64,000 nucleotides of DNA from Escherichia phage LinBro. How positions within the stretch are numbered: the first letter of the stretch is position 1; each line of letters opens with the position of its first letter. Positions 3 to 63,571 of this stretch are shown here, in pieces. The stretch is from sequence record OR896830.1; one strand, written 5' to 3'. The notes under the pieces are model-generated. The model saw nothing but the letters and a program-made list of their open reading frames with translations. It did not search any database and was not told where the DNA came from. The translations under genes were made by a program, and so were the position numbers.

Positions 3-875
3 AAGACAGGGCTGTATAATGTCAAGACTGGAGCTACATCATCAAATCTTTTACTTCAGTTATATCAGGGGTCTGAGTCATCTACACCGTCTGCGCAGCT
101 AAGATTTAAATGGGCGAATGGTGGTATGTGGTATAGGACATCAAGAGATGGTAATGGCTTTGAGAAAAGTTGGGCTATGGTGTACACAACTGCACAGAAG
201 CCAACCCCTTCAGATATTGGTGCATACACTAAAGCAGAAACTGACCAGAAGATTGCACAGGCAGTAAGTGATTCAACAGACCTTAATAAAATCTACCCTG
301 TTGGTATTGTAACGTGGTTTAACAGTAACGTTAACCCTAATACAGCACTGCCTGGTCTAACTTGGACGTACCTTAACAATGGTGTAGGTAGAACAATCAG
401 GATTGCAGCAGCTAACGGTTCAGATGTTGCTACAACTGGTGGTTCAGATTCTGTAACGTTATCTGTTGGTAACTTACCTTCACACACACACAGTTTTTCT
501 GCTACTACTTCGTCTTTTGACTACGGAACAAAAAACACTAACACGACTGGTGCTCACACCCACTCTGTAAGTGGTTCTACTTCATCTGCTGGTAACCACA
601 GCCACTCTATTTCGTGGATTGGTCAGAACTCACAGCACTATTCCGGTGGTGGTGGTGGTTACATTGGTACAGGGCCGGGTTACACCGATGCTAACGGTGC
701 TCACACCCACTCTGTAAGTGGTACTGCCGCTTCTGCTGGTAACCATGCTCACAGTGTTGGTATTGGTGCTCACAGTCATACAGTTAGTGGTAACACTGGT
801 GGTACAGGTTCTGGTTCAGCATTTAGTGTTACTAACCAGTTCTATAAGTTAATGGCTTGGGTGAGGACTGCTTAA
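3..875 (+). CDS. tail fibre protein, C-terminal part (5' end outside window)
   Basis: Frame is open from window start with no stop before 126; Gly/His-rich repeats (GAHTHSVSG...SAGNHSHS, three copies) typical of fibre tips. Confidence 0.5.
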
Positions 876-2464: not shown

Positions 2465-3010
2465 TCAAAAGTGTCCTTTTACTTGTGGAACATAGATTTC
2501 AAAGGTTGCTTTACCATCATCTGAAGGTCTCGACTGCACCTTTGCAAATACACGGTTATCATACAGCTTATCAAAGAAGTTTTCAAAAGGTAAATACACA
2601 GTGGCCTCTTCAGTAACTTTATGGAAAACTGTATGGAAAACTACACCAGCATATGGTAAAGCATCGACAAGAACACCTGCACCACCAATTACAAAGACAT
2701 CTTCATCAATAGAGCTATCAAGATACTTCAAAAATGCTCCAAAGGACTCTTTGCTGGCCTTAGCATACATTACATCTTCTTTACCAAAGTCTATACCATA
2801 ATAAGGTACAGAGTTTGTTAAGATAAGGTTTTCACGTTCTGGTAAAGGCTTACTACCCAGAGTCTTGAAAGTCTCGTTACCCATAACTACTAAGTTATCT
2901 TTAGTAAGTCTCTTAAACTCTTGCATATCCTGTTTATGTCGAGGCCACGGCATACCAGTTGGAGTGCCAAATTCACCGTTTTCACCACTTGCAAATATTA
3001 GTTTAATCAT
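2465..3010 (-). CDS. frd: dihydrofolate reductase
   Basis: 181 aa; N-terminal MIKLIFA..GENG..PW and central VMG..TF motifs of DHFR; adjacent to thyA. Confidence 0.85.
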   Translation of the reverse strand: MIKLIFASGENGEFGTPTGMPWPRHKQDMQEFKRLTKDNLVVMGNETFKTLGSKPLPERENLILTNSVPYYGIDFGKEDVMYAKASKESFGAFLKYLDSSIDEDVFVIGGAGVLVDALPYAGVVFHTVFHKVTEEATVYLPFENFFDKLYDNRVFAKVQSRPSDDGKATFEIYVPQVKGHF

Positions 3011-3267: not shown

Positions 3268-3783
3268 TTACTTAACCTCAAAAACTGGCTCAAGAACCAA
3301 TATAAAGTCTACACAGTCATCTTCTTCATCCAGAATACCATCAAAGTTCTTAGGAACGAAGTCGAAGAGGCTCATAACAAAACAGTCAGAAGTGACCCTG
3401 ATAGTTCCTCCCATGTTCTCTACAGTTAACACTGTACGACTTTCTTTTACCTCCCTCAGAAGATTACTCACAAAGTCATCTAAGAAGTACTTCATCAGTG
3501 ACTTGAAACCTTTAGGATAATCTGTACCAGAGTATGTTTCAATCTGTGGTACAAGCTTAACATTTATACTAGTCTTTGTTAAGAACGTTTTAGAGAACAT
3601 ACTATCAGGTAACTTACAAACAGTCTTTCCAGTACCTTCATGCTCAATCTCAACAAAACCAGCTTCATCGCCACATGTAACTATTTTAAAAGATGCTTCA
3701 TTCTCATACTGTGAAGCCATAAACTTTTTAAGCATTTCTTTAAGGAAATCTGCATGAGCATCCTGTAAGAAGATATCAATCAT
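3268..3783 (-). CDS. hypothetical protein
   Basis: 171-aa ORF in co-directional gene block. Confidence 0.45.
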   Translation of the reverse strand: MIDIFLQDAHADFLKEMLKKFMASQYENEASFKIVTCGDEAGFVEIEHEGTGKTVCKLPDSMFSKTFLTKTSINVKLVPQIETYSGTDYPKGFKSLMKYFLDDFVSNLLREVKESRTVLTVENMGGTIRVTSDCFVMSLFDFVPKNFDGILDEEDDCVDFILVLEPVFEVK

Positions 3784-3796
3784 AGTTAATCACCTA

Positions 3797-4156
3797 TTAT
3801 GGGAACAGACACTTAATGTCATCGTTTTTGAAAACAAAACTTGTGTAGTTATGACCATCAACATCCAACCAAACAGCCTGAACATCTACACCATCAAGAT
3901 TCTGGTAAAGCTCTTTGATGAAGTGGTCTTTTACAATCTGACTGCTAGTTGTTTCCAGCTTAATGTTCGAGATTGCTGAACCTACAGCCATATAGCCCAT
4001 GACACGTTTCTTCTCAGTATGCTTAATCTTACCATCTTTGTAAGCCATAATGAGATTGGAAAGAATCTTTACACCATAATACTTTTCAAGGTGAGTAGGC
4101 ACACCATAAAAGCCTAATGCGAAGTTTTCAGAGTGGATAATGTTTTCACGTTTCAT
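3797..4156 (-). CDS. hypothetical protein
   Basis: 119-aa ORF in co-directional gene block. Confidence 0.45.
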   Translation of the reverse strand: MKRENIIHSENFALGFYGVPTHLEKYYGVKILSNLIMAYKDGKIKHTEKKRVMGYMAVGSAISNIKLETTSSQIVKDHFIKELYQNLDGVDVQAVWLDVDGHNYTSFVFKNDDIKCLFP

Positions 4157-4157
4157 A

Positions 4158-4457
4158 TTAATCTGCCAACCTTAAATTGAAATTAACACCAAATTTTTCG
4201 CATACTTCCAACATATACTCAAGGGAGACGTTACCAGTGAGGTGGATTATGTTGGATACACGAGCCTGAGAGATACCACAAATTTTAGCGACTTGCTCTT
4301 GAGAAAGACCTCTGGATTTAATCTCTCTCTTAAAACGATGTGCAACGAAGTCTCTCATTTCGTCTACATCCATTGGACAAATATAACTCTCCATTTCAGC
4401 CTCTCTATCAGCCTCCCAATCATCTTGTGGAGCATAAGGGTCAAAAACCTCATTCAT
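4158..4457 (-). CDS. helix-turn-helix DNA-binding protein (XRE-like)
   Basis: C-terminal LSQEQVAKICGISQARVSNI HTH-like segment; start placed at internal Met (MNEVF) to avoid overlap, uncertain. Confidence 0.5.
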   Translation of the reverse strand: MNEVFDPYAPQDDWEADREAEMESYICPMDVDEMRDFVAHRFKREIKSRGLSQEQVAKICGISQARVSNIIHLTGNVSLEYMLEVCEKFGVNFNLRLAD

Positions 4458-4662
4458 CTTTCTTCTTCCGTTTGCGTGAAGTGTCAATCAATGAATCTAT
4501 GTTTGTAGCCCTAACCTTTTCACGTTCATCGTTAAGATAATCATCAAGAGCCTTTTCAATCTGTGAATCATCTTGACAGATAACTGTAAAGACTGTAAAG
4601 CCGTCTGTATCGTCAATTATCTTACCATAACCGCTTCTGGGATGTAACTTTTTAAGAGCCAT
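4450..4662 (-). CDS. hypothetical protein
   Basis: 70-aa ORF, short overlap with downstream gene. Confidence 0.35.
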   Translation of the reverse strand: MALKKLHPRSGYGKIIDDTDGFTVFTVICQDDSQIEKALDDYLNDEREKVRATNIDSLIDTSRKRKKKDE

Positions 4663-63398: not shown

Positions 63399-63491
63399 GG
63401 AAGATTAACCCTAAAAGGTAAGGGAGCAGTTTGCTAAACTGCCAGTAGCTGAGAAATCGGTGTACCAGTTCAAGTCTGGTATCTTCCTCCA
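63399..63491 (+). tRNA. tRNA-Ser (anticodon GCT), long variable arm
   Basis: Acceptor GGAAGAT/ATCTTCC perfect, anticodon stem GCAGT/ACTGC, loop TTGCTAA, long arm, T-arm ACCAG-TTCAAGT-CTGGT. Confidence 0.75.
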
Positions 63492-63495
63492 ATTT

Positions 63496-63571
63496 GAATC
63501 CGTGACAGAAATGGATATGTGCCTGTCTGCAAAACAGGTTTATAAGGGTTCGAGTCCCTTCGGATTCTCCA
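63496..63571 (+). tRNA. tRNA-Cys (anticodon GCA)
   Basis: Acceptor GAATCCG/CGGATTC perfect, anticodon stem CCTGT/ACAGG, loop CTGCAAA, T-arm AAGGG-TTCGAGT-CCCTT. Confidence 0.75.

Follow-up and report, generated by a model that had tools for sequence, protein, structure and literature searches.

The window analysed here, which is the whole stretch of 64,000 nt, opens within a gene. On the plus strand, frame 3 runs uninterrupted from the window's left end as far as a TAA stop codon at 873–875, and the ORF, its translation and homology identify this sequence as the last 290 codons and stop codon of a Felixounavirus long tail fibre (LTF) gene (3–875, +). The 5' part of the gene lies outside the window. 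The first 3000 nt of the window share 99.5% DNA identity with Escherichia phage vB_Eco_Tribble (OX016465) and 97% with phages Alf5 and pinkbiff, and approximately 200 Felixounavirus genomes match at 90–95%. The counterpart in Tribble is TRIB_053, a gene encoding 777 aa that is annotated 'putative tail fiber protein' and with which the baseplate/tail module ends; the 290 aa fragment differs from it by a single amino acid (N51D). In the PHROGs database the fragment matches tail fibre families, the best being phrog_4277, tail fiber (E=1e-142). ORFs of 44–49 aa in the other frames or on the opposite strand within 480–800 were dismissed, given the strong conservation of the frame 3 protein.

The fragment begins with a gp37_C-type domain (residues 8–92; 24–278, +), identified by Pfam PF12604 (E=4.9e-15) and by similarity to the Mu tail fibre S (8JU3, E=5e-17), which matched residues 2–84 in a search of PDB sequences. 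The tail fibres S of Mu and H of P2 share this type of domain, which here lies upstream of a series of HxH repeats. It is followed by a collar domain (residues 95–160; 285–482, +), equivalent to D10 of phage T4 gp37, which was recognized by Pfam Gp10_C (PF21939) and by alignment with T4 gp37 805–882. The Gp10_C match, covering residues 95–206, scored 27.9 bits and is barely above the cut-off of 27; the support from the alignment is strong. A further Pfam family, PF03335 (Phage_fiber), was matched in five stretches with a score of 43.2 bits (cut-off 20). The collar is nearly invariant among close relatives. Downstream of it, the remainder of the gene can be read as a predicted ascending needle arm with HxH motifs 1–3 (483–605, +; motifs at 483–491, 555–563 and 597–605), a head domain of 32 residues at the putative turn of the chain (residues 202–233; 606–701, +), a descending needle arm with HxH motifs 4–6 (702–779, +; motifs at 702–710, 744–752 and 771–779) and a C-terminal segment that would return to the collar (residues 260–290; 780–872, +). 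This reading follows the architecture of T4 gp37 and of the fibres of the Felixounavirus Bas63.

The six HxH motifs begin at residues 161, 185, 199, 234, 248 and 257 (nt 483, 555, 597, 702, 744 and 771), three before and three after a Gly-rich loop. A 20-residue unit, GAHTHSVSG(S/T)xxSAGNHxHS, is present in two full copies, at residues 183–202 and 232–251 (nt 549–608 and 696–755), and its first half recurs once more as GAHSHTVSG (nt 765–791). This half-copy and an upstream PSHTHSFS (nt 477–500) account for two of the six motifs. An earlier note on this DNA had counted three copies of the unit; the motifs it described are indeed in place, but only two of the units are complete and the third is a half. 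At the DNA level, a repeat search found a 50 nt direct repeat, with copy 1 at 549–598 (+) and copy 2 at 696–745 (+), which encode the two arms on either side of the head. The copies are 90% identical, with 27 nt of exact identity, and lie 147 nt apart. A Gly-rich run of ten residues (nt 645–674) is situated between motifs 3 and 4, and includes (GGT)5 at 645–659, which was the only tandem repeat found by TRF.

Residues 155–270 are rich in Gly, Ser, Thr and His (23, 22, 16 and 13, respectively, of 116), and the number of HxH motifs was compared with that in shuffled sequences. Shuffling of the 290 aa gave an expectation of 0.53 motifs, as against the six observed, and none of 20,000 shuffles reached six; when only the His-rich 116 aa were shuffled, six were reached in 11 of 20,000. 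These counts, together with the retention of the motifs in homologues, demonstrate that the HxH pattern is not due to chance.

Comparison with T4 reveals the relationship of this region to a tail fibre tip of determined structure. Residues 155–269 match the T4 gp37 tip (2XGF) with E=3.2e-14 in a phmmer search against PDB, and a profile of 88 homologues matches the same entry at E=1e-16. In a pairwise alignment, for which the T4 gp37 sequence was extracted from the T4 genome, residues 95–290 are colinear with gp37 805–1026, with 83 identities in 181 positions (46%). All six HxH motifs fall one-to-one on iron-site motifs of T4: motifs 1–3 on H883/885, H915/917 and H929/931, and motifs 4–6 on H966/968, H980/982 and H989/991. 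T4 has seven such motifs; the seventh, H998/H1000, is replaced by GGTGS in this fibre. The head aligns with the T4 tip at 932–965 and is hypervariable, while the C-terminal segment, which is highly conserved, aligns with T4 992–1026, its end (..MAWVRTA) being aligned with the native C-terminus of gp37 (..NYIVRLA). Both the homology and this motif-by-motif correspondence are direct observations. The placing of the repeats at the tail fibre tip in the earlier note is correct.

[quoted passage not shown] T4-like phages have been reported with seven to nine motifs (PMC6563267). In a cryo-EM study of Felixounavirus Bas63 (2025), the LTF and the short tail fibre (STF) were both described as having a tip of collar, needle and head like that of gp37; a reversal of the chain at the head makes the needle six-stranded, and there are six di-His motifs in the LTF and seven in the STF (PMC12609058). 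The motif counts in Tribble are the same, six in the LTF and seven in the STF. By its published description, the Bas63 LTF (gp27) resembles the present fibre in belonging to the same genus, in being encoded by the last gene of the tail module and in its six di-His tip. It differs in having one more histidine in the motif nearest the head (HHxH), where this window encodes GNHSH; the relatives dune, SSBS18 and LNA1 carry GHHNH at this position. The features that mark an LTF, namely a length of about 780 aa, a position after the short fibre gene and six di-His motifs, were all found through TRIB_053 of Tribble. The gene directly before it, TRIB_052 (Tribble 3347–4495, outside the window), is annotated 'Putative protein'; its product of 382 aa contains seven HxH motifs, FDYGTK repeats and a C-terminal ..QRTA, and is the short tail fibre, which has a gp37-type tip of its own.

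The region is thus very probably a gp37-type, metal-stapled needle with a receptor-contacting head at the tip of the LTF. By analogy with T4 and Bas63, on which the trimer topology, the metal binding, the identity of the metal and the receptor are all modelled here, three chains would form the collar, from which each chain would run outward along the fibre axis as the ascending arm, carrying three HxH motifs. The chain would then turn in the small head domain and return as the descending arm, with the other three motifs, to end in the collar, so that six intertwined beta strands would make up the needle. At each HxH motif, both histidines of all three chains would face the threefold axis and octahedrally hold one metal ion, which is Fe2+ in T4; six axial ions are predicted per trimer of this fibre. 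These ions would staple the thin needle and be required for its folding. A Gly-rich loop of 14 residues would form the head at the apex and contact the host receptor. The earlier note had suggested metal binding for the His-rich tip, and the position of all six HxH motifs on iron-coordinating motifs of T4 supports this by homology.

The likeness to T4 gp37 extends to the order of collar, ascending arm, head, descending arm and C-terminal return, with the Gly-rich head at the turn. There are also differences: there are seven motifs in T4 and six here, this fibre has eight residues fewer between motifs 1 and 2, and the head is unrelated in sequence and two residues shorter. The context is also distinct, as the tip here is preceded by a gp37_C domain of the Mu S/P2 H type and belongs to one protein of 777 aa, in contrast to the four-protein gp34–37 fibre of T4, and there is no adjacent gp38-like chaperone gene. 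T4 itself requires gp38 and gp57A.

The Gly/Ser/Thr/His-rich composition of residues 155–270 might instead denote a disordered, low-complexity tail, or a surface metal-chelating tag without a defined fold. In an AlphaFold2 monomer model, built from an alignment of 88 sequences, confidence was indeed low (pLDDT 62.8, pTM 0.30), with head residues 207–220 below a pLDDT of 50, and a Foldseek search of this model against PDB gave no match at E<=0.001. However, a poor monomer model is to be expected for an obligate intertwined trimer, which is the expected native state. The colinear and significant similarity to a crystallized, ordered domain, and a motif spacing (24/14/x/14/9) that is strictly kept across relatives, make a disordered tail very unlikely. 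Given the poor monomer model and the lack of a Foldseek match, the assignment of the fold as a gp37-type needle rests on sequence homology and on the literature. Comparison with homologues, which the earlier note had proposed as a check, showed repeats that are conserved and that match a crystallized, ordered beta-needle.

The earlier note had also raised the possibility of maturation of the tip. A C-terminal intramolecular chaperone or autoproteolytic segment that is lost after trimerization, of the kind found in endosialidase and in the L-shaped fibre tips of T5, would be compatible with the fact that a dedicated fibre chaperone is not evident immediately downstream of the fibre gene. However, no Peptidase_S74 or chaperone domain was matched in Pfam at E<=1, and the highly conserved C-terminal 31 residues are aligned with a C-terminus that, in T4 gp37, is native, uncleaved and part of the collar. 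Maturation of this kind is accordingly a most improbable explanation, and this suggestion was not upheld.

A protein search identified 1076 homologues at E<=1e-5. Beyond Felixounavirus fibres, the matches listed with a source name are mostly Enterobacterales prophage fibre or 'baseplate' proteins. Proteins with the PF03335 Phage_fiber family, which include lambdoid side tail fibres, P2-like prophage fibres and proteins annotated 'phage baseplate protein', have the same Gp10_C collar and HxH needle, a module that recurs in hundreds of prophage fibre proteins, but differ in their N-terminal shafts (PF12571/PF03406), in having four to seven motifs and in their unrelated heads. In the alignment of 88 sequences, all 88 have motifs 1, 5 and 6 and 87/88 have motif 3, while motif 2 is found in 31/88 and motif 4 in 65/88. 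This distribution, with the T4 site that is missing here, points to individual metal sites being evidently dispensable. From the conservation, motifs 1, 3, 5 and 6 would be expected to be essential to the assembly of the trimer, with greater tolerance of changes at motifs 2 and 4. In the 88 homologues, the length of the head that separates motifs 3 and 4 ranges from 23 to 70 aa and its sequence is unrelated between groups, with conserved flanks. The fibre tips were found to be the most variable part across the genus in the Bas63 study (PMC12609058).

Ten isolates that share this head type, two of them Suspvirus phages, always have six motifs with a spacing of 24/14/35/14/9 and no indels, and all 13 histidines are invariant. 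Substitutions among these isolates occur in the head and at non-histidine positions of the arms, with 7/17 variable positions in the ascending arm, 9/32 in the head and 9/26 in the descending arm. Variation is greatest at residue 220 (Y/K/S/R/A), which directly follows the Gly run, and is also seen at the nearby residues 221 and 223. This pattern of conservation is, again, observed directly. Other Felixounavirus head types differ in the number of motifs, with four in PHB11 and five in vB_SflM_004, and the wider family has four to seven. It had been proposed that repeat number may vary between isolates; this does not apply to the ten isolates of one head type, all with six motifs, but does apply across head types, some of which have four or five. 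Motif number therefore differs between head types, but close isolates show no polymorphism in copy number. No tandem repeat array with varying copy number was found, as TRF detected only (GGT)5, the 50 nt repeats are 147 nt apart and the ten isolates are of constant length; a tandem contingency locus was excluded on the basis of the TRF result and this constant length.

Felixounaviruses depend on the LPS core (PMC8594841), and the host receptor of this fibre would most probably be the LPS core, as in other members of the genus. The head type was found in 42 phage records, nearly all from phages whose isolation host was a rough-LPS strain (K-12, C or DH5a). A rough-LPS core as receptor fits these isolation hosts, a pattern that is itself biased by the choice of isolation host. 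Residues 202–233 of the head are the predicted receptor-contact apex. For HxH-bearing marine phage fibres, a 'Ferrojan horse' hypothesis has been discussed (PMC11705849), in which bound iron would serve as bait that engages a siderophore receptor of the host. As the ions of T4 are buried on the needle axis, and Felixounaviruses depend on LPS core rather than on protein receptors, there is hardly any likelihood that this operates here.

The similarity of the two arms in DNA raises the question of whether the HxH arms could primarily be recombination handles, that is, homology by which the head cassette is swapped, duplicated or converted, with switching of host range. The arms that flank the head are identical at 49/60 nt, including the 27 nt exact repeat, and 14/16 codons are identical where the amino acid is the same; they are more alike than in the other relatives tested, and in Felix O1 FO1a only 35/60 nt of the arms are identical. 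Nine consecutive identical codons would be expected by chance with a probability of about 1.6e-4, given the codon usage of the phage, and this improbability suggests that the likeness of the arms arose from intragenic conversion or recent duplication. In addition, the Felixounavirus REP7 (P0004) has a needle/head cassette that is 67/77 (87%) identical to T4 gp37 914–990, flanked by a Felixounavirus collar and C-terminus. On this evidence, needle/head cassettes apparently move between Tequatrovirus and Felixounavirus, seemingly via conserved arm sequences.

Against a primary role in recombination, no duplication or deletion variants were found among the ten isolates of this head type, and the histidines are invariant in the protein, which indicates selection on the protein and not on the DNA. 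Recombination is also compatible with a structural role, being a by-product of conserved structural motifs. Recombination as the primary function is therefore possible but rather doubtful. That the arms are kept alike in DNA as homology for intragenic conversion and for the exchange of cassettes between Felixounavirus and T4-like phages, of which REP7 would be an example, is more tentative still; if true, the HxH repeats would double as a device for the shuffling of host range. Duplications of the adhesin domain in T4 were reportedly described by Tetart et al. in 1996, with duplication end-points in 'His boxes'. Recombination is a plausible secondary role of the repeats that would fit these T4 duplications and involve no new principle.

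The feature is therefore real, and the metal binding proposed in the earlier note is largely correct, but it is already known: it is the gp37-type HxH needle and head of a Felixounavirus LTF. The fold, the iron sites and their occurrence in Felixounavirus fibres have all been published, and nothing here is new in principle. The value lies in annotation, since the 'putative tail fiber protein' of this phage group can be refined to an LTF that comprises a collar of gp37 type, a metal needle with six sites and a head. Determinants of host range are to be sought or engineered in residues 202–233 (nt 606–701), and especially in 219–223.

Upstream of the needle, megablast matches to many Felixounavirus genomes start at nt 84, 116–117 or 197 (window positions of approximately 84–200, residues ~28–65), and many tblastn matches start at residue 58 of the fragment. 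These recurring start points suggest a mosaic junction in or beside the gp37_C domain, near a stretch of 18 residues. The shaft upstream of the candidate junction is divergent.

Directly after the fibre gene there are two small ORFs on the plus strand, at 955–1149 (64 aa) and 1150–1521 (123 aa), the second of which has a hydrophobic segment at its N-terminus and a tail that resembles a coiled coil. Their matches in PHROGs are families of unknown function (phrog_402 and phrog_4038), and several relatives carry the annotation 'holin' for one ORF of this stretch. They were considered as fibre chaperones, and this was rejected on the basis of the unknown-function PHROGs, the only ones matched, and the 'holin' label in some records. 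A bidirectional, terminator-like hairpin at 1527–1550 closes the unit before a convergent thymidylate synthase gene. The genes for thymidylate synthase (1564–2463, –) and dihydrofolate reductase (2465–3010, –), named according to the annotation in Tribble and relatives, run from the opposite direction towards the end of the tail fibre operon. Felix O1-like phages carry large sets of tRNA genes, and in the window 26 tRNA genes, including tRNA-His(GTG) and tRNA-Gly(TCC), are clustered at 58665–63571 (+).
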